A DNA stretch of 36,651 bases from Anaerolineae bacterium (GTDB lineage: Bacteria; Chloroflexota; Anaerolineae; DRVO01). The stretch is taken from NCBI GenBank assembly GCA_028275325.1, contig JAPWUW010000002.1, positions 1 to 36,651 on the forward strand. Direction: 5' to 3'. How positions within the stretch are numbered: position 1 is the stretch's first letter; each line of letters begins with the position of its first letter. The notes under the pieces were generated by a model. The model was not told the DNA's origin and did not search any database. It was given only the letters and a program-made list of their open reading frames with translations. The position numbers and the translations under genes are program-made. Positions 9,018 through 31,704 of the stretch are shown one piece after another.

Positions 9018-9043
9018 CCACCCTCCCGCAACAGCCGAAATAA

Positions 9044-9084: not shown

Positions 9085-9096
9085 AACTGTAGCGGT

Positions 9097-10249: not shown

Positions 10250-10272
10250 GCTCGCACCTCCGCCGATCTGTG

Positions 10273-10297: not shown

Positions 10298-10364
10298 ATC
10301 CTACCGGAGATGCGGCAAGCACCCCGCGCAAGACATGATCGGGGCACGAGCAGAGAGTCTGCCG

Positions 10365-10562
10365 TCAGCGCACGTACACCACCCGCTCCTTTTCCAGCGA
10401 CTCAATGGCCGCCGCCAGCACTTTCTGGGCGGCCAGCCCGTCGGCGCCAGAGCCGTCTATCTTATCCGGCGGCACGCCTCGCGACACTTCATCGAGGAAG
10501 GTATGCAAACGGTTGACGAACGTATCCTCTGTGTATGCGGGTGCAGCGCCTGGGGGTGCGAG
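10365..10562 (-). pseudogene. orphan C-terminal remnant of a Gfo/Idh/MocA-type oxidoreductase
   Basis: Hand translation between two stops gives LAPPGAAPAYTEDTFVNRLHTFLDEVSRGVPPDKIDGSGADGLAAQKVLAAAIESLEKERVVYVR*. This matches the typical C-terminal end of the family (F..a...g..p..dg.dGl.a..v..Ai.eS......V). There is no start codon or N-terminal Rossmann part. Confidence 0.5.
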
Positions 10563-14793: not shown

Positions 14794-14913
14794 GGCACAG
14801 GTGCGGCACAAACTCGGCACAAAAATGCCTGCTCCCCATGTTCCACAGACTTTATACTTGAGGCAAGAAGCGAAGAGGGTTTGCGCCCTTGAACCCAATT
14901 CTGGAGGTGTGCG

Positions 14914-16284
14914 ATGGCTGCCAGGAGGATCTCGCGCAGGCAGATGCTGAGGGCTGCATTGTTGGGGGCCGGGGCAGGAGTGCTGGCCTCCTGTGCCGCA
15001 GCGACACCGCAAGTGGTGAAGGAAACCGTGGTCGTGGAAAAGGAGGTCACCGTCGCCGCACCAGTAGCAGAAGAGATAACGCTCAAGCTCATGAGCTGGG
15101 ACAGCGGCATCGGTGACACGAAAAAGATCAACGAGGTCACTCTGCCCGCGTTCATGGCAAAGCACCCCAACATCAAGGTGGAATATGAGGCACCACCATG
15201 GAATGAGTACTGGACGAAGATTCAGACCATGGCTGCTTCCGGCCAGATGCCCGATGCCTACGGGCAAAGCGTCGCCTACGGCTGGGACCATGCCAACAAG
15301 AAGATCTCGCTCAACCTGCAGCCCTACATAGAGGTTGACCTCAACACCGACGACTACTTCATGGAGATGGAGCTCAGCTGCCACCGCTACCTCAGCATGC
15401 AGACTGGGGACCTTTACGCCTTCCCAGTGCGGTGGGTGGGCGAATGGCTCTTCTACAACGCGGACATATTCGATGCGGCCGGGATGAAATACCCCGATGA
15501 CACGTGGACCTACGACGACATGCTGGCAGCAGCCAAGGCGCTGCACAAGGTGAGCGGGGACAAAGTCGAGGTCTGGGGCATGCTTGCGCCGGCCGGCCAT
15601 ATTGGCCTTGATGCCATGATCAAGGCCAATGGCGGGGAGGTCTTGAGCAAAGACTACAGGAAGTGCAAGCTGACGGAGCCCGCCGCGCTTGAATCCGTGC
15701 GCTGGGCAGTCGAGACTGTGACGACGCACAAAGTCGCCCCCACACCGGAGGTTCAGGCAGGCTTCATTGGCGGCATGTTCGCCTCTGGTGTGCTTGCCAT
15801 GGCCCTTGATGGCAGCTACCAGGCGCACTTCTGGCGGGATGCCGAGTTCAACTGGGATGTTACGTACGTGCCCAAGGGCAAGGTGAGCCGCGTCATGTAT
15901 GGGGGGCCAGATAGCATCTCCATCGCCCGGCAGAGCAAACACAAAGAGGCAGCTTGGGAGCTCATCAAGTACTGGGTGAGCGAAGAAAACCAGATGCGCA
16001 TGGAGGACCTGATCATAGGTGGCGTTCCTTTCCTCAAGAAAGCCGCTTACTCGGATACGTTCCTCAACCGCGAGGGGAACCCGAAGGGGATCAAGACCAT
16101 ATTGGACATGGCTTCGGTCCTGCGAGGCGCTGACTTCGGCCCGCAGTGGATGGAGTGGCGCGTCACGATCATGAACCAGGAGCTCGACCAGGCCTACCTG
16201 GGGCTGCGCTCCGTGGAGGAATCGGTCCAGGCTGCGTGCGCCGCCATTGATGCCGTGCTGGCCACCATCGAGTGGCCCGTCTAG
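14914..16284 (+). CDS. ABC transporter extracellular solute-binding lipoprotein (carbohydrate-type, family 1), Tat signal
   Basis: GGAGGTG precedes the ATG. It has the Tat motif SRRQMLR and the lipobox LASC, then a V/E/K-rich linker, then the typical SBP body (MSWDSG.., PDAYGQS, FPVRW, YVPKG). Confidence 0.85.
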   Translation: MAARRISRRQMLRAALLGAGAGVLASCAAATPQVVKETVVVEKEVTVAAPVAEEITLKLMSWDSGIGDTKKINEVTLPAFMAKHPNIKVEYEAPPWNEYWTKIQTMAASGQMPDAYGQSVAYGWDHANKKISLNLQPYIEVDLNTDDYFMEMELSCHRYLSMQTGDLYAFPVRWVGEWLFYNADIFDAAGMKYPDDTWTYDDMLAAAKALHKVSGDKVEVWGMLAPAGHIGLDAMIKANGGEVLSKDYRKCKLTEPAALESVRWAVETVTTHKVAPTPEVQAGFIGGMFASGVLAMALDGSYQAHFWRDAEFNWDVTYVPKGKVSRVMYGGPDSISIARQSKHKEAAWELIKYWVSEENQMRMEDLIIGGVPFLKKAAYSDTFLNREGNPKGIKTILDMASVLRGADFGPQWMEWRVTIMNQELDQAYLGLRSVEESVQAACAAIDAVLATIEWPV

Positions 16285-16315
16285 GCCTGCCGGTAGGGCC
16301 TTGTATTCTGGCAAG

Positions 16316-16338
16316 AGAGGGTGGCTTTGCCACCCTCT
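16316..16338 (+). promoter_or_regulatory. intercistronic stem-loop after the SBP gene (AGAGGGTGG ctttg CCACCCTCT)
   Basis: Read directly: a 9-bp perfect stem and a 5-nt loop, with no U-tract. It lies between the SBP stop (16284) and the permease start (16390). Confidence 0.55.
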
Positions 16339-16389
16339 ACCCCCTCTTCGTCAGCACACAAGGCTTGACGCGCACCCAGGAGAGCGAGT

Positions 16390-17322
16390 TTGGCTGAGGC
16401 GACCTTCACGCTGAGAGCTAGCAAGGGCGCAAGTGCCTCTCGAGCCAGGCGCAGCGCCTCCAAGCAGTTCCTGCAGGCCCTGCCGTTCCTTGCACCTACC
16501 ATCTTCGGCTTCTTCGTGTTTGTCTCTGGGCCAGTTGTGGCCGCTCTTGCGTTTAGCTTCACCAAGTGGGATCTGCTCACCCCGCCGAAGTGGGTCGGGC
16601 TCGGCAACTACCAGCAGATGGCGAGCATGCCTCTTTTCTGGAAGACGCTTGGCAACACCTTTTATTACACCGTGCTCTACCTTGTGCCTGGAATCATCTT
16701 GCCGCTGCTGGCCGCTATCTTTCTCAATCAGAAGGCCAAAGCCATCAGCATCTACCGCAGCATTTTCTTCTTGCCTGTTATAACCTCTACCGTTGCAGTC
16801 GCCCTTGTATGGTTGTGGCTGTACAACCCTGAGCTTGGCATCATCAACTACCTTTTGAGCCTGGTGGGCATCAAGGGGCCGCGCTGGCTTGCCGACCCAA
16901 GGACAGCCATGCCCTCAATTGTCATCATGAGCGTCTGGAAGGGCCTCGGCTACACAATGGTCATTTACTTGGCCGGGCTCCAGGGCATCCCGCAAGAGCT
17001 CTACGAGGCGGCGGCAATAGACGGCGCAGGGCGCTTCCGCCGCCACATCCACGTGACGCTGCCGCTGCTCACGCCGACTATTTTTTTCGTGCTCGTCACC
17101 ACTATCATGGGTTCGCTGCAGGTTTTCGAGCAGACCTACATGCTCACCCAGGGTGGCCCAGCCTATTCCACCACGACGCTTTCCTGGTACATCTACGTCC
17201 AGGCCTTTCAGTGGTTGCACATGGGCTTTGGCTGTGCCCTGGCCTACGTGCTCTTCTTCATCATACTGGTGCTCACGCTCATACAGTTCCGCATACAACG
17301 CATGTGGGTTTTCTATGGCTAG
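16390..17322 (+). CDS. ABC sugar transporter permease (MalF/UgpA-like)
   Basis: TTG start after AGGAGAG. There are six hydrophobic segments and the EAA-type loop YEAAAIDGAGRFRRHIHVTLPLL. Confidence 0.85.
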   Translation: MAEATFTLRASKGASASRARRSASKQFLQALPFLAPTIFGFFVFVSGPVVAALAFSFTKWDLLTPPKWVGLGNYQQMASMPLFWKTLGNTFYYTVLYLVPGIILPLLAAIFLNQKAKAISIYRSIFFLPVITSTVAVALVWLWLYNPELGIINYLLSLVGIKGPRWLADPRTAMPSIVIMSVWKGLGYTMVIYLAGLQGIPQELYEAAAIDGAGRFRRHIHVTLPLLTPTIFFVLVTTIMGSLQVFEQTYMLTQGGPAYSTTTLSWYIYVQAFQWLHMGFGCALAYVLFFIILVLTLIQFRIQRMWVFYG

Positions 17323-17331
17323 GGGGTACAT

Positions 17332-18222
17332 ATGCTGTCGTTGGCCACAGCACGGCGCCGCACAAGAGCCAAGCAGGGCCCGTTTTGGCTGGCGCTCCTC
17401 GGGGGCGTGTTTAAGCCGGTGGTGGTGCATGGCCTGCTCATACTGGCCAGCTTGATCATGGCCTTGCCCTTCATCTGGATGGTCCTGAGTTCTTTCAAGA
17501 CTCAGCCTGAGATCTTTATATTCCCGCCGCGCCTCTTGCCGCGCGTCTGGCGCTGGCAGAACTACGTCGAGGTCACGCGCGCGATGCCGTTTGGCTGGTT
17601 CACTTTCAACAGCATAAAGATCGCCTTTCTCGTCGTGCTGGGCACTGTCCTCTCCGCATCGCTTGCAGCCTACGCCTTTGCGCGCATGCAGTTCCCTGGC
17701 CGCGAGACGATGTTCCTCATTTGGATTGGCTGCATGATGATACCTGGGCAGGTGACGCTCATACCGCAGTTTGTCCTCTTTCGCTCCTTTGGCTGGCTCG
17801 ACACGCACCTGCCGCTCGTTGTGCCAAGCTTCTTCGGCAACGCCTTCGGCACGTTTCTGTTGCGGCAATTTTTCATGACCATCCCCATGGAGCTCGAGGA
17901 CGCGGCTGTGGTGGATGGCGCAAGCAACTTCCGCATCTACTGGACCATCATGATGCCGCTTGCCATGCCCGCAATTGCCACGCTTGCGGTGTTCACGTTT
18001 ATGGGCAGCTGGAACAATCTCCTCGGGCCAGTGATTTACCTCACCACCTATAAGAAGATGACGCTGCCCGTTGGCCTGGCCTTTTTCCGCGGCCAATATG
18101 GAACACAGTGGCCGCTCCTCATGGCCGGCGCGACGATAAGCGTGTTGCCCATCGTGGCCCTGTACGTGTTCGCCCAGCGCTATTTCGTCCAGGGCGTCGT
18201 CATGAGCGGCCTGAAGGGCTGA
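17332..18222 (+). CDS. ABC sugar transporter permease (MalG/UgpE-like)
   Basis: EAA-type loop LEDAAVVDGASNFRIYWTIMMPLAMP with a multi-TM profile, immediately downstream of the first permease. Confidence 0.85.
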   Translation: MLSLATARRRTRAKQGPFWLALLGGVFKPVVVHGLLILASLIMALPFIWMVLSSFKTQPEIFIFPPRLLPRVWRWQNYVEVTRAMPFGWFTFNSIKIAFLVVLGTVLSASLAAYAFARMQFPGRETMFLIWIGCMMIPGQVTLIPQFVLFRSFGWLDTHLPLVVPSFFGNAFGTFLLRQFFMTIPMELEDAAVVDGASNFRIYWTIMMPLAMPAIATLAVFTFMGSWNNLLGPVIYLTTYKKMTLPVGLAFFRGQYGTQWPLLMAGATISVLPIVALYVFAQRYFVQGVVMSGLKG

Positions 18223-18250
18223 GCGGCCCACCACACCAAGGGGAGACGTA

Positions 18251-19543
18251 ATGGCATTGCTGGCCGGTGCAGCCAAGGCGGACATCACCCCACAGCCGGG
18301 CGTCGACCTCACGGGCTACATTGCGCGCCTGAACCCCTCCATTGGGGTGCACGACAGGCTCTATTGCCGCGCGCTGGCCTTCTCAGACGGGCAAGCCACG
18401 CTCCTTCTGCTCAGCTGCGACCTTATCGGGTTCGGCATCGAGTATGCGCGGTGGGTCAAAGCTGAGCTGGAGCGCGCCACTGGGATCCCGCCTGCAAACA
18501 TAATGCTCTGTGCCACCCACACGCACTCCGGCCCCGCGACAATCTTTCTGGAGGGCTGCGGCCAACTGGCGCTGGACTACCTGGCCGGTTTGCCCTCTCA
18601 GATTGTTGCGGCCTCCCGGGGCGCCCTCGCCGCCCTGCAGCCGGTGGACCTTCGCGTGGCCAAGACAAAGGTTCCGGGAGTGGCCGTCAACCGGCGAGAG
18701 CCAGCACGTGGCCCTACCGACGACGAGCTGACAGTCGTCCTCCTGCAGGGCCCCGATGGCACGCCGCAAGCTGCTGCGTTGCACTATAGCTGCCACGCCG
18801 TCGTGCTTGGCCCGGATAACCGCCTCATCTCGGCGGATTTTCCGGGCGCTGCCTGTGCGCACTGGGAACGCAAGATGCGCTCACTCTGCTTTTACCTGCA
18901 GGGGCCTTGCGGAGATATCAACCCGCACAGTCACCCCGGCTCCTTTGCCGACGTGGAGGAAACCGGTGGGAGGCTGGCGGAGGCAGCTCTTGAATGCGCA
19001 AGCAGCCAGGCAGCAATGGGGACCATCGATGCGCACTTGCTGCGCGCCCGGTTGCAAGCCATTCGCCTGCCCCTTGCCGCACCGCCACAGTTGCCGGATC
19101 TATTCGCCTTTCGCTCTGAGCACCTGGCTGGCGCCGGCGAAGTTGAGGCGCAGTTCCAGGAGGCCAGGCAAAGGGTGAACCAGGCCATGGTCGGCTGGTC
19201 AGAGCGCGTCATTGCCGCCTGCTGCTCCGGCTTGCTCTTGCGAGATGTCGAGGTCGACCTGCAGTGCTTTGAAATTGGCGATCTTCTCATCCTGGCCGTG
19301 CCTGGCGAGCTGTTCGTGGAGTACAGCCTGGAGGCAAAACGCCTGGCAGCCCAGGCCGGCAAACACGCACTTGTAGTGGCTTATGCTAACGGCGATATCG
19401 GCTACATCCCGATGCCACATAGCTACGGCGAGGGTGGCTACGAGGTCGAGTGGGCTTACCGCTATTACGGCTACCCGGCGCCAGTTGCTCCGGAGGCGGG
19501 CTTGCGGCTGCGCGAATGGCTGGTTTCCAACATCACCGGCTGA
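18251..19543 (+). CDS. neutral/alkaline non-lysosomal ceramidase N-terminal-domain-like protein (putative amidase)
   Basis: AKADITPQPGVDLTGYIARLNPSIGVHDRLYCRALAF...LLLLSCDL...ATHTHSGP matches the characteristic N-terminal blocks of that family (diTP..g..l.GY, H-D-rL, THTHsgP). Confidence 0.6.
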   Translation: MALLAGAAKADITPQPGVDLTGYIARLNPSIGVHDRLYCRALAFSDGQATLLLLSCDLIGFGIEYARWVKAELERATGIPPANIMLCATHTHSGPATIFLEGCGQLALDYLAGLPSQIVAASRGALAALQPVDLRVAKTKVPGVAVNRREPARGPTDDELTVVLLQGPDGTPQAAALHYSCHAVVLGPDNRLISADFPGAACAHWERKMRSLCFYLQGPCGDINPHSHPGSFADVEETGGRLAEAALECASSQAAMGTIDAHLLRARLQAIRLPLAAPPQLPDLFAFRSEHLAGAGEVEAQFQEARQRVNQAMVGWSERVIAACCSGLLLRDVEVDLQCFEIGDLLILAVPGELFVEYSLEAKRLAAQAGKHALVVAYANGDIGYIPMPHSYGEGGYEVEWAYRYYGYPAPVAPEAGLRLREWLVSNITG

Positions 19544-19603: not shown

Positions 19604-20881
19604 ATGGGCAAGCTCGCTATGACAGGCGGAACACCTGTGCGCGCCAAGCCCTGGCCAGCCTGGCCAGAGGTGGACGAGCGCGACGTTGCGGCCGTGGCAG
19701 AGGTGGTTCGCAGCGGGAAGTGGAGCCGGCTCGGTGGCACAAAATGCCGGCAGTTCGAGCAGGCATTTGCAAAATACCAGGGCGCCAAGTACGGCCTGGG
19801 GGTCTCCTCAGGAACGGCTGCACTGGAGATCGCGCTGCGTGCCATGAAGGTCGGGCCGGGAGATGAGGTGATCGTGCCCCCTTACACGTTCATGGCCACC
19901 GCCACCGCTGTCCTCCAAGTGGGGGCCCTGCCCATTTTTGTCGACATCGACCCCGAGACTTACAACATCAATCCGGACCTGATCGAGGGTTCAATCACAG
20001 AGCGGACAAGGGCGATCATCCCGGTGCACTTTGGAGGCCTTGCTTGCGACATGGATCGCATACTGGCCATAGCGCGCAAGCACGACCTGCTCGTGTTGGA
20101 AGATGCCGCTCATGCCCACGGCGCCAGGTGGAAGGACAAGGGGCTGGGCACTATTGGCGATGCTGGCGCTTTCAGCCTGATGACTGGCAAGAACCTGGCG
20201 GCTGGCGAAGCCGGCATCATCCTCACCGACAGCGCTGAGCTCATGGGCTGGTGTGTGCTCTACCATGATTTCTGGCGGGGCGCTGTGCGCGCCGATGCAG
20301 TTGAATCCGAGCTGCCAGAAGGATGGTCGGTTCGCTTCCCGGTTCTGGCAGGAAACGACCGCATGAATGAGATAGAGGCCGCGCTTCTTCTCTCGCAGCT
20401 GGAGAAGCTGGAGGAGCAGACGCAGCGGCGTGCGGCAAACGGGGACTACCTGAACGGCCTCCTTGCGCAGATCGAAGGCGTGCGGCCCCTCAGGCGCGAC
20501 AGTTACGTCACGCGCAATTCCTATCACCTGCTCGTTTTCCAGTACACGGGCGAGGGCTTCAAGGGGCTCCCGCGAGAGAAGTTCGCGGCGGCCCTGCAGG
20601 CAGAAGGAATTCCCGTGAGCACTGGTTACCAGCGGCCGGTATACCAGCACCCCGTGTTCCTGGAAGCGCAGACTGCGCTGCCTAAAGGCTTCCCGGTGAA
20701 GGGCGGCTACTACGGCCGGGAAATCGACTACAAAGAGGTGCACTGCCCACAGGCGGAGCGGCTCTGCCAGCAGGAGACTCTGTGGTTGGGGCAGAACCTG
20801 TTTCTCGGCACCAGAGCCGACATGGACGACATCGCCGAGGCCATTGCCAAGGTCAAAAGACACGTCGATGAGCTCCTCTAG
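19604..20881 (+). CDS. DegT/DnrJ/EryC1/StrS-family aminotransferase (copy 2, PWPAWP subtype)
   Basis: ATG at 19604 follows AAGGAGG. Motifs are GGTPVRAKPWPAWPEVDERDV, GVSSGTAALEIALRA, GDEVIVPPYTFMATA, DAAHAHGA and the PLP-lysine block FSLMTGKNLAAGEAGIILT. Confidence 0.85.
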   Translation: MGKLAMTGGTPVRAKPWPAWPEVDERDVAAVAEVVRSGKWSRLGGTKCRQFEQAFAKYQGAKYGLGVSSGTAALEIALRAMKVGPGDEVIVPPYTFMATATAVLQVGALPIFVDIDPETYNINPDLIEGSITERTRAIIPVHFGGLACDMDRILAIARKHDLLVLEDAAHAHGARWKDKGLGTIGDAGAFSLMTGKNLAAGEAGIILTDSAELMGWCVLYHDFWRGAVRADAVESELPEGWSVRFPVLAGNDRMNEIEAALLLSQLEKLEEQTQRRAANGDYLNGLLAQIEGVRPLRRDSYVTRNSYHLLVFQYTGEGFKGLPREKFAAALQAEGIPVSTGYQRPVYQHPVFLEAQTALPKGFPVKGGYYGREIDYKEVHCPQAERLCQQETLWLGQNLFLGTRADMDDIAEAIAKVKRHVDELL

Positions 20882-20911: not shown

Positions 20912-22696
20912 ATGAACATTTACCTTCTGGCCGGGGAAGATCCTTCCAAGGGGCTGTGGCCATACGTTCTTGAGATCATGGCCACCGAGGGCTTGCCGAG
21001 GCCTGTCCTCATGAAGCCAGAGGGGCTTTCCCGTCTGTTACCTGTCGGCCGGGCTGTCGTCATTGTCCCTAGCATGGAGCTCTCAGCGAGCACAGCCGAG
21101 CTCCTCGGGCGGCATCTGCGCGGCGGAGGAGGGCTCCTCGCACTCAAGCCCTGCTCGGCTTTGGCCACCGAGCTCGGGCTGCGCAAGCTGCACGGAATCC
21201 CGGACTTTCTGCTTTGCGATGGCTACCTCGAGTTCAACAGGAGCCATCCCCTCTGCGTGGTCCTGCCGCCTCAAATCGATTACCTCCAGTACCATGGCCA
21301 GGCCGAGCCCTACGAGCTGCCGGCAGGCCTCTGTGCAGCCGCCACCCTTTACTGGGGCGGGACGTCCACGACCTGTGGCGCTATAGCCACGGGCCACCTG
21401 CATAAGGGGAAAGCGGCTATCTTCGCGTACGACCTGGCTGCTTCCACGATGCTCTTCCGCCAGGGCTTGCGCCGCCAGAGCAGCCTGGGGGAGCTGCCAG
21501 ACCGCAGTGGCGATAGCATGTTTACCCCTAATGACCTTTTCGTCGGCTTCCTGGATGCAGGGCTGCGGCTGGTGCCGCAGGCTGACCTGCACGCGCGGCT
21601 GTTTGCAAAGGCGCTGGCCTGGCTTTGCGAGGACTGGGCTCCACTGCCGAGGCTCTGGTACTTCCCCGGAGGGAAGCCAGCGGTGGCCCTCATCAATGGC
21701 GATAGCGACGCCATGAGCCGCGAGGAGATGGAGCTATATATCCAGCTGGTTGCCAGGGCGGGTGGGCACTATACCCTGTACCTCATGCGCGAGCACTATG
21801 ACTTGGTTCCGCCCGAGCTAGTCGCCCATTACCTCTCCCTTGGGCACGGTTTTGGCCCGCACATCTGGGCGGGGCCGCGGCCAACGCCGGAAGAGTTCGC
21901 CGCCTGTGCGCAGGAGGAGGTCGCGGCATTTGTGGGCAGGTACGGATTCAGGCCAACTACCACGCGCCACCACTGCGTCATCTGGCCGGGATGGGTTGAA
22001 CCGGCACGTGCGCTCGAGAAGGTAGGGATCCGCATGGAGGTCAACTTCCGTGCGGCGCATTTCTTCCGCGAGGGCTATTTGAGCGGGAGCGGCCTGCCCA
22101 TGCCATACATGGACGAGACGGGAAAGGCCATTGAGGTCCTGCAGCAGCCGACGCTTCTGTGCGACGACTTCCTGTTCCAGAACAAGAGTTACCTGCGGCC
22201 TCTCAAGATGCAGGAAGTGATTGCCCTCACGGATGCCATGCTCGAGGGTTGCGTGCGGGATTACAACACCGTCTTCCAGGCCTACTTTCACCCTGTGTAC
22301 GCCCGCAAAGAGAACCCTCTTGTTCCTGGGACGTACACCGTGCCCTGGCTTGAGCACACTGTGGGCAGGTGTCAGGAGCTGGGCGTGCCAATGCTATCGG
22401 TCCAGGAGTGGTGCGGCTTCGCCTGGGCACGCCGCCGCGTATGGCTGGATAACCTTTCCTTCGAGCCCGGCAGCCGCCTGCTGACGGCCGCGCTTCGCAC
22501 AGAGCTCGGTGCTATTCCCGGGGGCCTTACCATCATGGCGCCTTTGCGCTGGCAGGGGCTGGAGGCCAAGTCGGTGCGCGTTGGCGGGGAGCTCGCCTCG
22601 ACGTGGAGGCGCAGATGGCTCGGCGAGGAGTGGCTCTTTTGCGAATTGCCTGCCCTCGCGGCGAGCCAGCAGCTAAAGATCCTGTACGGGAACTAG
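20912..22696 (+). CDS. conserved hypothetical ~590-aa protein (paralog A); central part deacetylase/hydrolase-barrel-like
   Basis: 594 aa with clear paralogy to 34143..35882: shared blocks PNDLFxGxLDA, PQADxH, PLPRLWY, HCVxWxGxVExARAL, GSGxPM and LGVPxL. I recognise no diagnostic family signature. Confidence 0.6.
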   Translation: MNIYLLAGEDPSKGLWPYVLEIMATEGLPRPVLMKPEGLSRLLPVGRAVVIVPSMELSASTAELLGRHLRGGGGLLALKPCSALATELGLRKLHGIPDFLLCDGYLEFNRSHPLCVVLPPQIDYLQYHGQAEPYELPAGLCAAATLYWGGTSTTCGAIATGHLHKGKAAIFAYDLAASTMLFRQGLRRQSSLGELPDRSGDSMFTPNDLFVGFLDAGLRLVPQADLHARLFAKALAWLCEDWAPLPRLWYFPGGKPAVALINGDSDAMSREEMELYIQLVARAGGHYTLYLMREHYDLVPPELVAHYLSLGHGFGPHIWAGPRPTPEEFAACAQEEVAAFVGRYGFRPTTTRHHCVIWPGWVEPARALEKVGIRMEVNFRAAHFFREGYLSGSGLPMPYMDETGKAIEVLQQPTLLCDDFLFQNKSYLRPLKMQEVIALTDAMLEGCVRDYNTVFQAYFHPVYARKENPLVPGTYTVPWLEHTVGRCQELGVPMLSVQEWCGFAWARRRVWLDNLSFEPGSRLLTAALRTELGAIPGGLTIMAPLRWQGLEAKSVRVGGELASTWRRRWLGEEWLFCELPALAASQQLKILYGN

Positions 22697-23029: not shown

Positions 23030-23075
23030 TTGACGGGAGTAAAGTTCCCTGATATGTTAACAGTAATGTTACTAA
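23030..23075 (+). promoter_or_regulatory. candidate promoter (TTGACG-17 nt-TATGTT) overlapping palindromes TGTTAACA / TAACAgtaaTGTTA upstream of the ROK gene
   Basis: -35 is at 23030-23035 and -10 at 23053-23058. The palindromes lie at 23055-23062 and 23058-23071. This is the most AT-rich stretch I saw in the window, and GGAGAG plus the TTG start follow at 23087/23098. Confidence 0.45.
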
Positions 23076-23097: not shown

Positions 23098-24306
23098 TTG
23101 CGACGCCGCATCGCTGCACTGCAAAGATCTGCCATCTTGCGACAGATTTGGGTTCACGGGCCTCAGTCTCGCGCTTCCCTTGCCCGCCGGCTCAAGCTGC
23201 GCCCGAGCTCTGTAACCAGCCTCACGCGGGAACTGCTGGATACCGGCCTCCTCAGGGAGGTGGGAGAAGGGCGGCCAAACGGGGGCAGGCCGCCGCTGCT
23301 TTTAGACGTCGATCGGGCCGGCAACTATGCGCTGGCCCTCACGGTGGAATCCAGGGGGCTGACGGTTGCCCTGGTGCGCTGGGATGCGCAGGTCCCACAC
23401 AGGGTCTTTGAGCCAATCCGCCCCGATGAGAACCTGCTGCCCTTCCTGCAGGCCGTGACTCGGACGTGCGAGCGGGTTTTGGCCGAGGCCGGTGTGGGCA
23501 GGGAGCGGGTGCGCGGTGTTGGCGTGGGCATCTCGGCCCTGGTGGATCCGGCGGCCAACGAGGCGGTTTTCTCGAGCACGCTTGCGGCCGTGCAGCGGCT
23601 GCGGCTCGACTTCCTGGCCCAATCCCTGGGGCTGCCCGTGTACCTGGAGGATATCGCCTACATGATGGCGCTGGGGGAGCGCTGGTTTGTCTACCCTGGC
23701 GACCATCGTGCCCTTGTCATGGTCTACGTGGGCGGCGGCACCTGTGGTGCCATCCTTGAGCCATGGGCGCGACCGCATAGCCCGCGCTTTGCCTGCGAGT
23801 TCGGGCACATGGTCGTGGATCCGGATGGGCCACCCTGCGGCTGCGGCAAGCGCGGCTGTCTGGAAGCTTACGTCTCCGAGCGGGCGCTGCTCGTGCAGGC
23901 CGAGCAGCTATTTGGCCGCCGCAATGGTGTGTCACCCACCCTTGCCGCAGTGGCCGAGTGGGCAAAGGAAGGTGACCCTGCGGCCAGGCAGTTCATTGCC
24001 GCCGCGGGGGAGTACCTTGGCGTGATGCTCGCCAACCTTGTGAACGTCCTGGCCCCGGCGCTGGTGGTCGTCGGCGGCTCTCTTCTGGATACTTGGGGCT
24101 CGCTCCTCTGGGCGGAGCTTGAGCGCTGCCTGCAGGAGCACGCTTTGCCGCAGCTTCTCAGGCAGGTGGAAGTGGTGCCGGCAAGGCTGGGCGAGGACGC
24201 GGCGCTGATTGGCTGTGCGGCCAGGGTCATGCAGGCCGTGTGGGAATCCCCCGAAGCTGCACCGGAAAGGGGAGTGCTGGGCAGGGCCGCAGCTGCCCAG
24301 GCTTAG
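23098..24306 (+). CDS. ROK-family transcriptional regulator (N-terminal wHTH plus ROK sugar-kinase-like domain)
   Basis: The wHTH is RSAILRQIWVHGPQSRASLARRLKLRPSSVTSLTRELLDTGLL. The ROK zinc motif is GHMVVDPDGPPCGCGKRGCLEAY. The TTG start is uncertain. Confidence 0.8.
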   Translation: MRRRIAALQRSAILRQIWVHGPQSRASLARRLKLRPSSVTSLTRELLDTGLLREVGEGRPNGGRPPLLLDVDRAGNYALALTVESRGLTVALVRWDAQVPHRVFEPIRPDENLLPFLQAVTRTCERVLAEAGVGRERVRGVGVGISALVDPAANEAVFSSTLAAVQRLRLDFLAQSLGLPVYLEDIAYMMALGERWFVYPGDHRALVMVYVGGGTCGAILEPWARPHSPRFACEFGHMVVDPDGPPCGCGKRGCLEAYVSERALLVQAEQLFGRRNGVSPTLAAVAEWAKEGDPAARQFIAAAGEYLGVMLANLVNVLAPALVVVGGSLLDTWGSLLWAELERCLQEHALPQLLRQVEVVPARLGEDAALIGCAARVMQAVWESPEAAPERGVLGRAAAAQA

Positions 24307-24344
24307 GTGGGGCAGGAAAGGGCAGAGATCGCGGAGGTGCAGAG

Positions 24345-25604
24345 ATGGCGCGTTACCTTGAGGAAAATGTCGGCGGCATTACTGGCGGCTATGCCTTCAA
24401 TGACGGCGTGAAGTTGAAGGTGCCCTACTCGTTCATGGGATCTATCTTCGACGAAGATGAAGAGCAGGCACTCCTGCACGTCCTGCGCCAGGATTCGCTC
24501 ACTTCTGGGCCGCAGGTGGCCTCGTTCCAGAAGGAGTTCGCGAGCTGGTGTGGCGTAAAGCACGCCTTTGCCACAACAAGCTGCACCACGGCCATGCACG
24601 TGGCAACGCAAGCCCTGGGGATCGGGCCGGGGGATGAGGTCATCATCACGCCCAACACCTTCATAGCAACAAGCCTTGCGGTCATCAAGGAAGGCGGCAT
24701 CCCCATCTACGCCGATATCGACCCCAGAACCTACAACATCGATCCGGCTGAGGTGGCCAAGAAGGTGACCCCGAGGACAAAGGCGATCTACGTGGTGCAC
24801 TATGGCGGCCAGATGTGCGACATGGACCCGATCATGGAGATAGCCAGGAAGTACGGGCTGGCTGTCCTTGAGGATTGCGCTCATGCTCACGGCAGCGAGT
24901 ACAAGGGGCGCAAGGCCGGCACCATTGGCGATGTTGGCTGCTTCAGTTTCCACTCCCTCAAGAACATGACCATGGGCGAGGGCGGCATGATCACCACAAA
25001 CCGCGATGACCTCGTGCCCAAGATCGAGCTCCTGCGCAACATGAACATCAAGAGCTGGGAGAACCAGAAGTACTACTGGCTGCCCAGCCATTTCGACGTG
25101 GTGGATGTGGACGGCAAGTGGGGGATCAACTACCGCATGAACGAGTTCCAGGCGGCGCTTGGCCGGGCGCAGCTGCGCAAGCTGCCCATGCTCGTCCAGA
25201 GACGCCGCGAGATCGGCCGGGCCATCAACGAAGGACTGCAGGGGATCAAGGGCATCACGCCGGTGTACGAGGACCCCAACTGCTACCACTCCTACCACCT
25301 CTACACGCTCTGCGTGGAGCAAGAAGAGCTCGGTGCCAGCCGGGATGAATTCATGCGCTGCCTCTACTACGAGGAAGGTGTGCAGGGGATCCTCCATTAT
25401 CAGCCAAACTACGATTTCACGGGCGTGAAGAAGTACCTGCAGGAGCGCGGCTACGGCGGCCAGTTCTGCCCCATAGCGGACAAGTTCTTCTACCGGCGCG
25501 AGCTCAACCTCCCAATGCACCCGCGCCTGACGGAAGAGGACGTGCAAAACATCATCACAGGCGTGCGCAATGCGGCCGAGAAGGTCCGTGGCAGCGGCAA
25601 GTAG
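24345..25604 (+). CDS. DegT/DnrJ/EryC1/StrS-family aminotransferase (copy 3)
   Basis: ATG at 24345 follows GGAGGTG. Motifs are ATTSCTTAMHVATQALG, GDEVIITPNTFIATS, DCAHAHGS and FSFHSLKNMTMGEGGMITT, followed by INYRMNEFQAALG. Confidence 0.85.
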   Translation: MARYLEENVGGITGGYAFNDGVKLKVPYSFMGSIFDEDEEQALLHVLRQDSLTSGPQVASFQKEFASWCGVKHAFATTSCTTAMHVATQALGIGPGDEVIITPNTFIATSLAVIKEGGIPIYADIDPRTYNIDPAEVAKKVTPRTKAIYVVHYGGQMCDMDPIMEIARKYGLAVLEDCAHAHGSEYKGRKAGTIGDVGCFSFHSLKNMTMGEGGMITTNRDDLVPKIELLRNMNIKSWENQKYYWLPSHFDVVDVDGKWGINYRMNEFQAALGRAQLRKLPMLVQRRREIGRAINEGLQGIKGITPVYEDPNCYHSYHLYTLCVEQEELGASRDEFMRCLYYEEGVQGILHYQPNYDFTGVKKYLQERGYGGQFCPIADKFFYRRELNLPMHPRLTEEDVQNIITGVRNAAEKVRGSGK

Positions 25605-25719
25605 AGCAGGGGATGCAAGGCCTGGAGTCCGTCCAGGGGAGCGGGTTTGGCCTGCCTGCAGGCTGGGCGCGCTGTGCGCTGCGGCAGGGCTTCGTGCTGG
25701 AAGCTGAGGAGGGCCTGTC

Positions 25720-26778
25720 ATGACAGTGAAGTGGGGGGTGATCGGGGCTGGTGGCATTGCCGACCGGCGCACCATTCCGGAGATGCTCAGGGTGGCGGAC
25801 AATGCCGAGCTTGTGGCGGTGATGGACGTGAACCCGGAGGCCACGCAGCGCGTGGCGCGCAAGTACGGCGTGCCGAGGGCGTACGGCACCGAAGAGGGGC
25901 TGCTGCGCGACCCGGAAGTGCAAGCTGTCTACATCGCCACGCCGCAGAACGTGCACCACAGGCAAGTCCTGCTTGCCGCGAGGTACGGCAAGCACATCCT
26001 GTGCGAAAAGCCCATGGCCACAAGCCTCCAGGACGCCGCTGAGATGATCGAGGCTTGCCAGAAGGCGGGGGTCAAGCTCGGCTTCGACTACATGATGCGC
26101 TTCAATGTCCACAACCAGAAGGTGAGGGAGTTGGTTCAGGGCGGCGCTCTGGGAAGGCCAGTCATGGGGCGGGCGCAGCTTACCTGCTGGTACCCGCCAA
26201 TTCCTGGTGCCTGGCGGCAGAAGCGGGAGATAGCCTTCGGCGGAGCGCTCATCGACATGGGAAGCCACTGCCTGGACCTTTTGGAGTGGATCTTCGGCAG
26301 CCGGATCGTGGAGGTCTTCGCCTTCCACGATAGCCTCGTGCAGAGCTACGACGTGGAGGACACCTCCACCGCCATCCTGCGCTTCGAAAATGGCGCCCAT
26401 GGCATTGTCGACAACTATTTCAACGTGCCCGATGCCGCAGCCAAGAACTTCCTTGAGGTGTACGGCAGCCTCGGCACCATCTTCGCAAGCGGCACGATAG
26501 GCCAGGACCCGACGGGGAGCGTCACCACTTACCTCGCGCCGCCTGGGCTTGCCTACTCCGCCGACCAGGTCCGAAACGTCAGCGCGGACGTGAGGATGGA
26601 GAAGTACGAGCTTGAGGGCGTGCCCATGTACGGCACGATGGTGAAGCTTTTCAGCGAGGCGGTTGAGAAAGGCGGGGAGCCGCCTGTCCCGGCGGAGGTG
26701 GGCTACCACAACCTGGAAGTCATCATGGCCCTTTACGAATCAGCACGGGGCGGCCGCCCTGTGCGCATCGCCTATTGA
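25720..26778 (+). CDS. Gfo/Idh/MocA-family NAD(P)-dependent oxidoreductase
   Basis: The Rossmann start is KWGVIGAGGIADRR, with the family EKP motif HILCEKPMA and a typical C-terminal alpha/beta domain. Confidence 0.85.
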   Translation: MTVKWGVIGAGGIADRRTIPEMLRVADNAELVAVMDVNPEATQRVARKYGVPRAYGTEEGLLRDPEVQAVYIATPQNVHHRQVLLAARYGKHILCEKPMATSLQDAAEMIEACQKAGVKLGFDYMMRFNVHNQKVRELVQGGALGRPVMGRAQLTCWYPPIPGAWRQKREIAFGGALIDMGSHCLDLLEWIFGSRIVEVFAFHDSLVQSYDVEDTSTAILRFENGAHGIVDNYFNVPDAAAKNFLEVYGSLGTIFASGTIGQDPTGSVTTYLAPPGLAYSADQVRNVSADVRMEKYELEGVPMYGTMVKLFSEAVEKGGEPPVPAEVGYHNLEVIMALYESARGGRPVRIAY

Positions 26779-26805
26779 GCGCAGGCAACGGGAGGAGCTT
26801 ACGGA

Positions 26806-28098
26806 ATGAGCGAGCTGGCAATAAACGGCGGGAGCCCGGTGCGCACGAAGCCATGGCCAGCCTGGCCAGTGCACGATGAGCGCGAGGTGCAGGCCGTCAC
26901 GGAGGTGGTGCGCAGCGGCAAGTGGTGGCGCTTCGCCTATGCCACCGGGGTGGAGCTGAACGAGGACCTGCAGGCGCAGGAGCTTTCCAAGGTGGTCGAG
27001 TTCAGCCTGAAGTTCGCCAGGCACCACCAGGCGCGCTTCGGCATCGCCATGGCCAACGGCACTGGGACGCTTGAGGTGGCCCTGCGGGCCCTGGGGATTG
27101 GCCCTGGGGACGAGGTGATAGTGCCCGCCTACACGTACGTGGCCAGCGCCACCTCCGTGCTGCAGGTGAATGCCATCCCCATCTTTGTGGACGTGCAGGC
27201 GGACACTTACAACCTGGATCCGGCCCGCATCGAGGAGGCCATCACCGAGCGGACGCGGGCCATCATGCCCGTGCACTTTGGCGGCCAGCCGGCAGACATG
27301 GATGGCATCCTTGCCATAGCCAAGAAGCATGGGCTCGCCGTGGTGGAAGATGCAGCGCACGCCCATGGCTCGGAGTGGCGCGGTTGCAAGGTGGGTGCGC
27401 TCGGCGATGTCGGCTCCTTCAGCTTCCAGGCTTCCAAGAACATGACGGCGGGCGAGGGCGGCATTGTCCTCACCAACGACCAGGATCTGGCCGAGAAGTG
27501 CGATTCGCTCCTGTGGGCGGGGCGCAAGAAGGGCAGGCCCTGGTACGAGTTCCACCAGCTGGGGTGGAACTACCGGATGACGGAGTTTCAGGCGGCGATA
27601 CTGCTCGTACAGCTGGAAAGGCTTGAGGAGCAGAACGACAGGCGCATGGCCAATGCCCGCTACTTGAGCGCGCGCCTGGCCGAGGTGGAGGGCCTGGAGC
27701 CGCTGCGCTGGGATGAGCGCGCGACCAAGCACAGCTTTCACATCTACATAATGCGCTACCAGCCCGAGGCTTTTGGCGGCCTGCCGCGCAGTCGCTTCGT
27801 GGAGGCGCTTGTGGCCGAAGGGATCCCGGCGTTCACAGGCTACACTTTTCCGGTTTACGCCAACCCGATGTTCGTCAACAAGAACTTCCATGGCAAGGGC
27901 TGCCCGCTCGCCTGCGGGCATTACGGCCGCGATGTCGACTATGCGGCTTTTGCCCGGAGCTGCCCGGTGGCGGAACGGGCCTGCTATCAGGAAGCGATCT
28001 GGCTGGAACAGCGGCTCTTTCTGGCTGAGCGGGAAGACATGGACGACATTGTCGAAGCCATCCTGAAGGTGAAGGCGGGGGTGAAGGAGCTGGCCTAG
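26806..28098 (+). CDS. DegT/DnrJ/EryC1/StrS-family aminotransferase (copy 4, PWPAWP subtype)
   Basis: GGSPVRTKPWPAWPVHDEREV closely parallels copy 2. Other motifs are GDEVIVPAYTYVASA, DAAHAHGS and FSFQASKNMTAGEGGIVLT. It carries an extra ~35-aa insert after the N-terminal block relative to copy 2. Confidence 0.85.
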   Translation: MSELAINGGSPVRTKPWPAWPVHDEREVQAVTEVVRSGKWWRFAYATGVELNEDLQAQELSKVVEFSLKFARHHQARFGIAMANGTGTLEVALRALGIGPGDEVIVPAYTYVASATSVLQVNAIPIFVDVQADTYNLDPARIEEAITERTRAIMPVHFGGQPADMDGILAIAKKHGLAVVEDAAHAHGSEWRGCKVGALGDVGSFSFQASKNMTAGEGGIVLTNDQDLAEKCDSLLWAGRKKGRPWYEFHQLGWNYRMTEFQAAILLVQLERLEEQNDRRMANARYLSARLAEVEGLEPLRWDERATKHSFHIYIMRYQPEAFGGLPRSRFVEALVAEGIPAFTGYTFPVYANPMFVNKNFHGKGCPLACGHYGRDVDYAAFARSCPVAERACYQEAIWLEQRLFLAEREDMDDIVEAILKVKAGVKELA

Positions 28099-28255
28099 GA
28101 GGCGCGGAAAGGAGGTGATGCAAGGGGTTGCGCTCAGGGGAGCTGGCTGGGAATCCCCCGTTCGATCTGCGAGAGAACAGCAGGGCTTGCTTGTTGCGCC
28201 GGTTGCGCCATGAGGGAGGATGGGTAGCGCCCAAGGGGCGCAGGGGGAGGCAAAG

Positions 28256-29671
28256 ATGAGCTGCAGGAGAGGGTATCTTTCGCGACGCGGCCTGCTCAAG
28301 GCAGGCGTTGGGCTTTTGGCTTCGGCCGCCGTGGGGGCGTGTGCGGCAACGCCCACGCCGCAGGTGATCGAGAAAGAGGTCACTGTGGTGGTCGCTGGCA
28401 CGCCGCAGGTGGTCGAGAAAACGGTCGTCGTGGAGGTGGAGAAGCCCGCAGGCCCGGTGGAGATCCGCATTGCCTGCTACACCATGGGCGAATCCTGGAT
28501 GAAGAATGCGGAGGAGTGCTTCGCCGACTTCATGTCCAAGAACCCCAACATCAAGGTGAAGGCGGAGTGGCGCCCCGGCGCCGAGTACTGGACGAAGCTG
28601 CAGACGGAGTTTGCTGCCGGCGTGGCTCCGGACATCACCGTGAACCAGATGGACTGGGTCATCCCGGGTGCCGCGCGTGGCATGTTCCTGGACCTCAAGC
28701 CCTACATCGAGCGCGACGGCTTCGACATGAGCCAGTACTTCTACAACATGAGCCTGGAGTGGGAGTGGCAGGGAGGGCTTTACGGCGGCTTGCTCTACGC
28801 GGGCGGGCAGACGCTCATGATCAACAAGGACCTCCTGGCGAAAGCGGGGCTTGAGTTCCCCACTGAGGACTGGACGTGGGACGACCTGCTGGCCTACGCC
28901 AAGGCGATGACCAACCCCGATGAGAACCAGTGGGGCCTGATGGGCGCAAACTCCAACCCACCTTACTGGCTGTGTTCCTTCATCCACGGCGCGGGCGGCA
29001 GTGTTCTCAACGACGCGTACAACAAGTGCACGCTCACAGAGCCGGCGGCGGTGGAGGCTGTGCAGTGGGTTGCTGACCTCATGTTCAAGCATAAGGTGCA
29101 CCCTTCGGCGGTGACGGAGTTCGGCGGGGAGGACCCGTTCCTCACCGGCAAGGTGGGCATGGCCTTTCGGGGTACCTGGTACGAGAGCCAGGTGCGCGAT
29201 GCCGGGCTCTTCGACTGGGATTTCGCCCCAATGCCGAAGCACCCAGTGACGGGCAAGAAGAGCGTGCAGATGGGGTCGAACACCTGGTCCATCATCAGCA
29301 ACACCCAGCACCGGGAAGAGGCCTGGCAGCTTGTGAAGTTCCTCATGGGGCCGGAGGGGCAGACCTGGTTCATGAAGTACGGCATCCCCGGCATCAGGAG
29401 CGTGGTCGAGAGCGAGGCGTTCAAGAAGCTGCATGAGCCGCAGAACATCCTCGTCGTGGTGAACGACTTCGCCTGCTGCGGCCACGACTACTACCCCACC
29501 GCCGATTGCGGCGAGTGGTGGAACGTCTGCAACCAGGAGATGTCGCCAATCTGGTCCGGGGAGCTCAGCGTGCCAGAGGCTCTGGCCAACGCCTGCGCCG
29601 CCATGGACGAGGTATTCTCCCGTCGTCCTCCGTACTACGAGAAGGTGCGCCAGCCACTTACTACAGGCTGA
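28256..29671 (+). CDS. ABC transporter extracellular solute-binding lipoprotein (second system), Tat signal
   Basis: ATG at 28256 follows GGGGGAGG. It has the Tat motif SRRGLLK and the lipobox VGAC, then a duplicated V/E/K linker, then the SBP body (PDITVNQMDW, GGQTLMINKDLL, PMPKHP). Confidence 0.85.
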   Translation: MSCRRGYLSRRGLLKAGVGLLASAAVGACAATPTPQVIEKEVTVVVAGTPQVVEKTVVVEVEKPAGPVEIRIACYTMGESWMKNAEECFADFMSKNPNIKVKAEWRPGAEYWTKLQTEFAAGVAPDITVNQMDWVIPGAARGMFLDLKPYIERDGFDMSQYFYNMSLEWEWQGGLYGGLLYAGGQTLMINKDLLAKAGLEFPTEDWTWDDLLAYAKAMTNPDENQWGLMGANSNPPYWLCSFIHGAGGSVLNDAYNKCTLTEPAAVEAVQWVADLMFKHKVHPSAVTEFGGEDPFLTGKVGMAFRGTWYESQVRDAGLFDWDFAPMPKHPVTGKKSVQMGSNTWSIISNTQHREEAWQLVKFLMGPEGQTWFMKYGIPGIRSVVESEAFKKLHEPQNILVVVNDFACCGHDYYPTADCGEWWNVCNQEMSPIWSGELSVPEALANACAAMDEVFSRRPPYYEKVRQPLTTG

Positions 29672-29683
29672 GAGCAAGAAAGC

Positions 29684-29721
29684 GTGCAGTGCGGGGGCGC
29701 GTCTTTATCCCCGCACTGCAC
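29684..29721 (+). promoter_or_regulatory. intercistronic stem-loop after the SBP gene (GTGCAGTGCGGGG ... CCCCGCACTGCAC)
   Basis: Read directly: a 13-bp perfect stem (29684-29696 / 29709-29721) with a 12-nt loop and no U-tract. It lies between the SBP stop and the permease start at 29737. Confidence 0.6.
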
Positions 29722-29736
29722 GCACCAGGGGGGAAG

Positions 29737-31580: not shown

Positions 31581-31704
31581 GCTAGCCCGGCATCCCTTTC
31601 TCACCTAACCTCCCGTCCCTAGGGAGGGAAGGCAGAGAAGCAGCCGGGGAGGGGTTGGCAGGGGAGGGCCGGGACATTATATGTTGGCGGGAGGAGCGGG
31701 GGAT

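Follow-up and report, generated by a model that had tools for sequence, protein, structure and literature searches.

Two paralogous three-domain proteins with a NodB-type barrel, encoded beside DegT aminotransferase and sugar importer genes in an Anaerolineae bacterium, are candidate carbohydrate de-N-acetylases

Two genes of an Anaerolineae bacterium (Chloroflexota), designated P0001 and P0002, encode proteins of about 590 amino acids which a preliminary description, made from the DNA sequence alone, could not assign to any family. Both lie on contig JAPWUW010000002.1 (assembly GCA_028275325.1), and the stretch analysed here (positions 1 to 36,651, forward strand), which makes up the complete 36.65-kb contig, is referred to as the window. 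The question raised by this locus is what such proteins do at or near the end of operons that otherwise encode sugar importers and DegT aminotransferases. The reading favoured here, with moderate confidence, is that both proteins are metal-dependent carbohydrate de-N-acetylases (de-N-acylases) of the cytoplasm with a NodB fold, which would act on imported amino-sugar saccharides or oligosaccharides and feed a DegT transaminase.

The two open reading frames (ORFs) that the preliminary description had reported are both present, at exactly the positions listed in Table 1. A BLASTP alignment of the translations over about 525 amino acids gave 29% identity and 44% positives (E 7e-53), so at the level of sequence the similarity is far above chance. 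All blocks that had been read by eye as common to both proteins were found in this alignment, namely KGKAAIFAYDL/KGAVCLFTYDL, PNDLF.G.LDA, PQAD.H, PLPRLWY, HCV.W.G.VE.ARAL, GSG.PM, (F/S)HPV and LGVP.L.

The structures of both proteins were predicted with AlphaFold2 from family alignments, with a pLDDT of 95.4 and a pTM of 0.95 for P0001 and values of 92.4 and 0.93 for P0002. Both models consist of three domains: an N-terminal alpha/beta/alpha domain (about residues 1-205), followed by a conserved linker, a beta/alpha barrel (about residues 256-508) and a C-terminal all-beta domain. When the barrel of P0001 was compared with the Protein Data Bank (PDB) using Foldseek, the matches were 3rxz (E 1.8e-7), ArnD (8t0j), 3s6o, WbmS (3hft) and chitin deacetylases from insects and Vibrio. 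Across the searches with both models, NodB matches at E values of about 1e-7 comprised 3rxz, ArnD, 3s6o, an insect chitin deacetylase and Bc1974. The Foldseek probability was 1.00 for 3rxz, 3s6o, 5n1j, 2cc0, 6h8n and others, with target template modelling (TM) scores of 0.55-0.69. The barrels of 3RXZ, 3S6O, PuuE and ArnD have been grouped as a divergent 'NodB1.2' class (PMC10967932). A glycoside hydrolase barrel of the GH38 or GH57 type was also considered and rejected; none occurred among the top Foldseek matches, and the glycoside hydrolases that did match were aligned to the N-terminal domain only.

The N-terminal domain of P0001 superposes on the GATase1-like domain B of GH42, GH164 and GH35-like glycosidases and on STM3548 and STM1381. 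In GH42-type enzymes this domain follows a TIM barrel and mediates trimerisation, whereas in P0001 and P0002 it precedes the NodB barrel. Weak matches to DUF4350, GH42M, GATase1_like and ThuA were obtained for it in the Pfam scans across the family, and the N-terminus of P0002 gave faint matches to DUF4350, GATase1_like and ABC_transp_aux in Pfam and NCBIfam. The residues conserved in this domain (P0001 numbering) are Y18, E21, E26, G27, G72, P80, Q126, D174 and Q184. The Cys-His-Glu triad of class I glutamine amidotransferases is absent, no conserved Cys or His occurs in residues 1-205, and only the fold is shared. The domain is probably non-catalytic and extends the sugar-binding cleft.

The search with the P0002 model returned the same two sets of structures, headed by a protein that combines both domains, Agd3 of Aspergillus fumigatus (6nwz_A, E 2e-16, about 750 columns). 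The second multi-domain match was human NDST1 (8ccy, E 2.7e-10, about 547 columns). Agd3 consists of an N-terminal alpha/beta/alpha domain (CBM87), a distorted (beta/alpha)7 barrel (CE18) and a C-terminal beta-sandwich, described as 'a unique three-domain architecture' (PMC7229062), and in NDST1 a non-catalytic Rossmann-like N-terminal domain is packed on an Agd3-like deacetylase domain (PMC10864358). Because the models and the published domain orders agree, P0001 and P0002 share the whole architecture of characterised de-N-acetylases. The preliminary description had suspected a deacetylase- or hydrolase-type barrel with Asp and His ligands outside canonical CE4, preceded by a separate flavodoxin- or GATase-like domain, and both suggestions are borne out; the structure comparison that it had proposed recovered the NodB barrel and the three-domain build. 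Its statement that no family could be assigned, and that the function was locus-specific, overstated the novelty, given the match of the whole build to Agd3 and NDST1 and the fact that a few members are already annotated automatically as 'polysaccharide deacetylase family protein'.

Sequence searches gave much fainter signals. P0001 had no match in Pfam or NCBIfam. P0002 reached 22.7 bits against Polysacc_deac_1 (PF01522), under the gathering threshold of 23.1 bits, and neither protein found anything among all PDB sequences by phmmer. Searches of the PDB with two family profiles (39 and 42 members) returned CE4 deacetylases at E values of 0.002-0.9 and one GATase1-like protein. Weak Pfam matches among the 39 members were to Polysacc_deac_1 (14/39, best E 7e-5), DUF4350 (10/39), GLMA_2nd (7/39) and Glyco_hydro_42M (5/39), while HSNSD, the NDST deacetylase model, was matched by 0/39 at E<=0.1. 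As far as such searches reach, the similarity of the barrel is to CE4 deacetylases only, and it is sub-threshold.

The putative active site was defined by mapping about 200-320 relatives onto a family hidden Markov model (HMM), with P0001 numbering; the roles given here come from position after the barrel strands, motif equivalence and HMM alignments, and not from model coordinates. Near-invariant residues were D264 (200/201), H317 (203/204), R352 (197/201), H354 (196/201) and H460 (189/193), and position 418 was Asp or Glu. Position 266 was Asp in 112 sequences, His in 76 and Glu in 9, as expected of a metal ligand. The profile alignments placed the family motif G-H-x-F-G-x-H on the CE4 'GH' (mt8) motif and the first His of MT2; H312 was accordingly assigned as the structural mt8 His, and residue 266 was assigned, on the same alignments, as an MT1 metal ligand moved by one residue (D-x-D/H instead of DD). 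R352 and H460 are conserved after the expected strands, and their putative equivalence to MT3 and MT5 is based on strand order; the prolines of MT3 are absent. The motifs NGDSDA/TSDDDW, GHGFGPH/GHAFSVH and RHHC/RSHC, in which the preliminary description had seen possible metal ligands, are real and contain residues conserved throughout the family.

In comparison with known systems, the family has the same domain order as Agd3 and, as proposed here, a similar arrangement of Asp base, His acid and metal site at the top of the barrel (PMC7229062). Agd3, however, has a DD motif and an HxxxH motif; its CM1 and CM2 are separated by more than 120 amino acids, and the Arg that holds the base (CM3) comes late in the protein (PMC7229062). 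P0001 and P0002 have D-x-D/H, a single His 51-53 amino acids downstream, an Arg 35 amino acids after this His (the presumed canonical MT3 position) and then a conserved His. Agd3 is also a secreted, polymer-acting enzyme encoded in a biosynthetic cluster for extracellular polysaccharide (EPS), while P0001 and P0002 are cytoplasmic and encoded in importer operons. NDST1 uses an Asp base (D319), a His acid (H529) and a His-His-Asp metal triad (PMC10864358); it is a eukaryotic Golgi membrane enzyme, and P0001 and P0002 differ from it in lacking a sulfotransferase domain and in the proposed arrangement of the metal triad. With CE4 NodB proteins, including ArnD and the 'NodB1.2' proteins 3RXZ, 3S6O and PuuE, the family shares the barrel fold, and the GH (mt8), the first MT2 His and an MT4-like Asp can be recognised, together with putative counterparts of the MT3 Arg and the MT5 His. 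It deviates from CE4 in its sub-threshold Pfam scores, the D-x-D/H form of MT1, the lack of a second MT2 His and a putative MT3 that reads R-x-H without Pro-Pro-Tyr, and those CE4 proteins lack both flanking domains. Pseudomonas PelA (CE21) and Bacillus cereus PelA_DA (CE26 and CBM114) are comparable cases of NodB-like enzymes that were too diverged for CE4 or CE18 and were placed in new CAZy families (PMC13254593). They are periplasmic or extracellular EPS modifiers with DD and HxxxH, and none was recovered in the family searches made here. The kind of protein is thus known, a NodB-fold carbohydrate deacetylase of Agd3/NDST-type build, and the family fails the defining motifs of both CE4 and CE18.

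Length, predicted location and residue 266 vary together in the family. The 239 members of up to 640 amino acids include only 11 with a signal-peptide-like N-terminus, and 227 have Asp at position 266. Among 46 members of 641-1000 amino acids, 40 have such an N-terminus and 41 have His266; for the 37 members longer than 1000 amino acids the numbers are 24 and 29. No signal-peptide-like N-terminus was found in P0001 or P0002. Asp266 hence accompanies the cytoplasmic forms and His266 the secreted forms. The longer members add Ig-like, cadherin, Calx-beta, PKD, DUF2341, DUF4082, GH16-like or 3-keto-disaccharide-hydrolase-like domains, and these domains together with the signal peptides show that the module is employed in the cytoplasm as well as on large glycan-directed proteins outside the cell. 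In relatives such as P0101, P0107, P0110, P0113, P0118 and P0177 the module heads giant secreted proteins of 1000-3000 amino acids, in which Big_9 domains also occur and the putative ligand 266 is His. No fusion with a DegT or GFO protein occurred among the longer relatives.

An exhaustive phmmer search of 1.84 billion representative sequences returned 1331 clusters at E<=1e-3 and 260 at E<=1e-30. Nearly all named matches are 'hypothetical protein' from Chloroflexota (Anaerolineae, Caldilineaceae and Thermomicrobiales), and the automatic names of a few P0002-type members also include 'PgdA/CDA1 family' and 'DUF4350 domain-containing'. A scan of species genomes showed that Armatimonadota, Latescibacterota and Verrucomicrobiota carry members as well. 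Many of the Chloroflexota metagenome-assembled genomes (MAGs) with members appear, from their isolate names, to be sponge or coral symbionts, and the window contig recurs in metagenomes of hot springs and microbial mats. Literature searches on the gene combination, on 'GATase1-like + polysaccharide deacetylase' and on DUF4350 found no paper on this family, and a 2026 paper on N-deacetylase mining treats CE4, CE18 and NDST enzymes only. The sequence family is large, previously undescribed and without a characterised member.

The preliminary description had pointed to two diverged copies in one locus. They are not a local duplication. In a FastTree phylogeny of 217 full-length members P0001 and P0002 fell on opposite sides of the midpoint root (80 versus 137 leaves), which points to an old duplication, and each has its own orthologues, with 53-56% identity for P0001 and 57-68% for P0002. 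A recent tandem duplication was rejected on the same grounds, the identity of the two proteins being lower than that to orthologues elsewhere. Both types are also present together in one other Anaerolineae MAG (locus-tag prefix ACYC5O).

Within the window, each gene stands near the end of an operon directly after a DegT/DnrJ/EryC1 aminotransferase gene (Table 1). Both operons encode an ATP-binding cassette (ABC) importer with a solute-binding protein (SBP) and two permeases. DegT_b in operon A is preceded by an AAAGGAGG ribosome-binding site, an AAGGAGG ribosome-binding site lies 8 nucleotides upstream of P0002, and a promoter-like site is located at 23030-23058, before operon B. The GFO/IDH/MocA oxidoreductase GFO_a is closest to inositol 2-dehydrogenase IolG (153 bits, below the equivalog cut-off), and the creatininase-like protein matches the NCBIfam models creatininase, MftE and IolN (59 bits; 3-dehydro-scyllo-inosose hydrolase), all below cut-off. 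No DegT protein of the window reaches an NCBIfam equivalog cut-off, all scoring far below. DegT_b and DegT_d are 51% identical, while the other pairs share 32-38%.

Table 1. Positions of P0001, P0002, their domains and proposed active-site codons, and the neighbouring genes in the window
Feature	Position	Strand	Remarks
P0001	20912-22696	+	594 amino acids; ORF and translation
P0001 N-terminal alpha/beta/alpha domain (about residues 1-205)	20912-21526	+	GATase1/CBM87-like; model, Foldseek, weak Pfam, conservation
P0001 NodB-type (beta/alpha)7 barrel (about residues 256-508)	21677-22435	+	Foldseek to 3rxz, ArnD, 3s6o, WbmS; HMM alignment
P0001 C-terminal beta-sandwich (about residues 509-594)	22436-22693	+	all-beta at 510-593 in model
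P0001 codon D264	21701-21703	+	proposed base; motif equivalence
P0001 codon D266	21707-21709	+	proposed metal ligand; motif equivalence
P0001 codon H317	21860-21862	+	proposed metal ligand (first MT2 His); motif equivalence
P0001 codon R352	21965-21967	+	proposed to hold base (MT3); motif equivalence
P0001 codon H354	21971-21973	+	proposed third metal ligand; motif equivalence
P0001 codon D418	22163-22165	+	MT4-like, proposed role; motif equivalence
P0001 codon H460	22289-22291	+	proposed acid (MT5); motif equivalence
P0002	34143-35882	+	579 amino acids; ORF and translation
P0002 codon D258	34914-34916	+	equivalent of D264; residue mapping
P0002 codon D260	34920-34922	+	equivalent of D266; residue mapping
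P0002 codon H309	35067-35069	+	equivalent of H317; residue mapping
P0002 codon R346	35178-35180	+	equivalent of R352; residue mapping
P0002 codon H348	35184-35186	+	equivalent of H354; residue mapping
P0002 codon D412		+	equivalent of D418; residue mapping
P0002 codon H451	35493-35495	+	equivalent of H460; residue mapping
Operon A		+	SBP, permease, permease, ceramidase-like amidase, DegT_b, P0001 (last gene); Pfam
Operon A front	14914-19543	+	Pfam
SBP1	14914-16284	+	Pfam
Permease	16390-17322	+	Pfam
Permease	17332-18222	+	Pfam
Neutral-ceramidase-like amidase	18251-19543	+	Pfam
DegT_b (DegT/DnrJ/EryC1 pyridoxal phosphate-dependent aminotransferase)	19604-20881	+	Pfam E 9e-99; 30 nucleotides upstream of P0001
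Operon B		+	ROK, DegT_c, GFO_a, DegT_d, SBP2, permease, permease, GFO_b, DegT_e, P0002, creatininase-like; Pfam, NCBIfam
Operon B front (ROK through GFO_b)	23098-32889	+	Pfam, NCBIfam
DegT_e (DegT-family aminotransferase)	32895-34064	+	Pfam E 3.6e-73; 78 nucleotides upstream of P0002
Creatininase-family amidohydrolase	35933-36649	+	Pfam E 1e-48; runs off contig end, start approximate

The association with DegT genes is not limited to this contig. Homologous loci (numbered with L) were found in a scan of species genomes with a 15-sequence family alignment. Within 10 kb of the target in 32 of these loci, the raw counts were 28/32 for DegT, in four phyla, 19/32 for GFO, 9/32 for an SBP with two permeases and 9/32 for an Amidohydro_2 pair. 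The DegT_b orthologue (52-58% identity) specifically accompanies P0001-type genes elsewhere. The order SBP-permease-permease-target also occurs in L001, L004, L007-L009, L011 and L030, and L004 repeats the order of the window: Amidohydro_2 pair, kinase and regulator, importer, target and DegT. L033, the locus of a P0002 orthologue, repeats the content of operon B including the creatininase-like neighbour; its additional genes encode an AAC(3)-type N-acetyltransferase, an AP_endonuc_2 barrel, a methyltransferase and a cyclase. Transcription of the genes was seen in four mat metatranscriptomes, which contained short contigs at least 99% identical to the P0001 gene and the SBP gene; one RNA contig crosses the junction of DegT_b and P0001 (20812-20962), with the reservation that the depth was low and that carry-over of DNA is possible. 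The conserved catalytic signature and gene neighbourhood and the transcribed gene agree with the earlier argument that two diverged copies reflect a real, selected function.

For the favoured reading the following course is proposed. A divalent metal would be held by D266, H317 and H354 and would activate a water molecule; D264, oriented by R352, would serve as the general base, and H460, tuned by D418, as the general acid. The adjacent ABC system would import an N-acetylated amino-sugar oligosaccharide or monosaccharide, or possibly an aminocyclitol conjugate. P0001 and P0002 would remove the N-acyl group of the imported sugar, and the co-transcribed DegT aminotransferase would turn the exposed amine into a ketone. 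The GFO/IDH/MocA oxidoreductases, one of which is GH109-like, may carry out accompanying redox steps or an NAD-dependent cleavage of glycosides. We infer the ligands, the preference for N- over O-acyl groups, the kind of substrate and the order of these steps from the evidence given above.

Several points weigh against this reading. The enzymatic activity of the family is a prediction from models and sequence analysis, and none of its members has been characterised. Agd3 was not among the best 50 Foldseek matches of the P0001 model. No sequence homology to Agd3 (6NWZ) was detected in phmmer and profile searches of the PDB at E<=10 and, with the second profile, at E<=1, and NDST1 (8CCY) gave no match in the family-profile searches of PDB sequences. 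No sugar kinase or aldolase that would complete a catabolic route was found in the window, the AAC(3)-type N-acetyltransferase of L033 fits poorly with deacetylation followed by catabolism, and we know of no precedent for DegT transamination of free amino sugars in catabolism. The metal motifs also deviate. When MT1 (TFDD) was looked for, no adjacent Asp pair was found but D264-x-(D/H/E)266, with Ser, Ala, Gly or Asp at position 265; P0002 has DDD here, but the middle Asp, unlike the two that flank it, is not conserved across the family. At MT2, H(S/T)xxH, H317 represents the first His, but the +4 position is Gly, Glu, Ser or Ala and the second metal His is absent. From the alignments we propose that the near-invariant H354 of the R-x-H motif supplies the third metal ligand in its place. 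NodB enzymes of the PuuE type, in which both the Asp pair and the second His are missing, work without a metal (PMC10967932). The P0001/P0002 family differs from PuuE in retaining the Asp pair, and this favours a metal enzyme.

A more far-reaching version of the favoured reading is put forward tentatively, as possible but doubtful. The proteins would form a new carbohydrate esterase family with a re-wired metal site, whose cytoplasmic members start an undescribed, transaminase-based catabolism of amino sugars in Chloroflexota and some other phyla. An N-acetylhexosamine-type oligosaccharide, such as Pel-, glycosaminoglycan- or heparosan-like alpha-linked N-acetylgalactosamine or N-acetylglucosamine from the matrix of a mat or host, would be de-N-acetylated, and the dedicated DegT would form a keto-sugar. 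GFO or GH109-like NAD enzymes would then follow, and this route would replace the classical one through a kinase, NagA and NagB.

An unlikely alternative is that the locus builds an amino sugar or aminocyclitol instead of degrading one. As with ArnD and WbmS, a DegT enzyme would install the amine, a transient N-acylation would pull the unfavourable transamination, and P0001 and P0002 would later deacylate the product. ArnD (8t0j) and WbmS (3hft) are among the best structural matches of the barrel, the DegT genes score best, below cut-off, against the PseC, ArnB and WecE models, and in L033 an Antibiotic_NAT N-acetyltransferase and a methyltransferase lie beside the target. GFO and DegT proteins also form the classic pairs of 3-oxidase and 3-aminotransferase (WbpB/WbpE, GnnA/GnnB and NtdC/NtdA), which counts for this route. 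However, the window ORFs that were scanned include no nucleotidyltransferase, NDP-sugar dehydratase, glycosyltransferase or flippase, and the genes belong to operons for ABC importers, which are accompanied by a ROK regulator and two-component control. P0001 and P0002 are moreover soluble proteins without a membrane anchor, unlike ArnD.

Next in order, and similarly unlikely, is an O-acetyl esterase which acts on imported acetylated oligosaccharides in the manner of CE4 acetylxylan esterases and has no direct tie to the amine chemistry of DegT. The same NodB machinery does perform O-deacetylation, and acetylxylan esterases (2c71, 7fbw, 7ax7 and 2cc0) were among the sequence and structure matches. 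The close pairing with one particular DegT orthologue, seen over a wide phylogenetic range, argues instead for a substrate that bears an amine, and the closest analogues of the whole architecture, Agd3 and NDST1, are de-N-acetylases.

It is slightly less probable still that the proteins are de-N-acylases or ring-opening amidohydrolases of aminocyclitol- or aminoglycoside-type compounds, serving the uptake and breakdown of inosamine-containing molecules and possibly working without metal as PuuE does. The DegT family includes scyllo-inosose aminotransferases, and five of its paralogues are encoded in the window; IolG is the closest match of GFO_a, and IolN is among those of the creatininase-like protein. 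In L033 there are an AAC(3)-type acetyltransferase and an IolE/MocC-like AP_endonuc_2 TIM barrel, and the neighbours at this locus give hints of aminocyclitol or aminoglycoside-type chemistry; like PuuE, the family has lost the second MT2 His. These family matches are all far below equivalog cut-offs, however. The invariant D-x-D/H, His and His set resembles a metal site, while PuuE lacks both MT1 Asp residues, and polysaccharide substrates are suggested by the giant secreted relatives, which carry Ig, cadherin and GH16-like domains. An inactive carbohydrate-binding or scaffold protein, that is, a NodB pseudoenzyme like BA0330, BA0331 and BA3943, is very improbable: canonical CE4 motifs are unmet, the Pfam score is sub-threshold and CE4 pseudoenzymes are known (PMC4505593; 6hm9 and 6hpa are among the P0002 Foldseek matches), but the polar set of base, metal and acid type is near-invariant in more than 300 diverged sequences, with a ligand-typical D/H/E exchange at one position, and such residues are normally lost in pseudoenzymes.

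Some further features of the loci were recorded. The five DegT/DnrJ/EryC1 paralogues of the window (771-2054, 19604-20881, 24345-25604, 26806-28098 and 32895-34064) are an unusual number for operons that look like uptake and catabolic ones. The neutral-ceramidase-like protein (18251-19543), with 430 amino acids, is much shorter than true ceramidases and gives operon A another candidate amide hydrolase. GFO_b (31681-32889), of the GFO/IDH/MocA family, matched Glyco_hydro_109_C weakly; among the GFO genes adjacent to the target, those in L003, L006 and L033 match this model clearly and that in L035 faintly. Proteins of the GFO_b type may act as NAD-dependent glycosidases and not as simple dehydrogenases. 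Upstream of the importer, an Amidohydro_2 pair, a hybrid histidine kinase-receiver and a convergent receiver-domain regulator are found both in the window (5962-16314) and on the distant contig L004 (2113-7191); in the window the 3' ends of the ORFs for the kinase and the regulator overlap (13573-13616). A PIN-domain toxin gene (9582-9992, minus strand) lies in a minus-strand patch that breaks the plus-strand sugar loci. An ORF of 330 amino acids (4205-5197), which follows a transglutaminase-like gene, gave a borderline match to Polysacc_deac_1 (23.5 bits against the cut-off of 23.1); a similar gene adjoins the target in L025 of Armatimonadota, and a transglutaminase-like gene does so in L006. 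In L033 the genes for Antibiotic_NAT (aminoglycoside 3-N-acetyltransferase family) and the AP_endonuc_2 TIM barrel (8091-9867) lie directly upstream of the P0002 orthologue, and the creatininase-like, methyltransferase and cyclase genes lie downstream of it. A gene for a PhyH-family dioxygenase stands directly after the target and before the Amidohydro_2 pair in the Chloroflexota SBP-permease-permease-target loci L001/L002 (11802-12707). In L012, taken from its isolate name to be a sponge-symbiont MAG, genes for an enolase-superfamily protein and a sulfatase are nearby.

CAZy has recently created separate families, CE18, CE21 and CE26, for NodB-fold deacetylases whose sequences have diverged too far for CE4. 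The family described here is a candidate for a further one: it comprises at least 1300 clusters at 50% identity, is covered by no model in Pfam or NCBIfam and lacks a characterised member. The three-domain build of Agd3 and NDST, called unique in 2020, is widespread in bacteria, where it occurs in cytoplasmic stand-alone enzymes and at the head of giant secreted proteins. At a putative metal ligand the cytoplasmic forms have Asp and the secreted forms His, a switch that poses a testable question of structure and function. The consistent pairing with one DegT lineage inside sugar importer operons points to an undescribed use of amino sugars, and this pairing is found in abundant and poorly understood Chloroflexota of hot-spring mats and among apparent sponge and coral symbionts.

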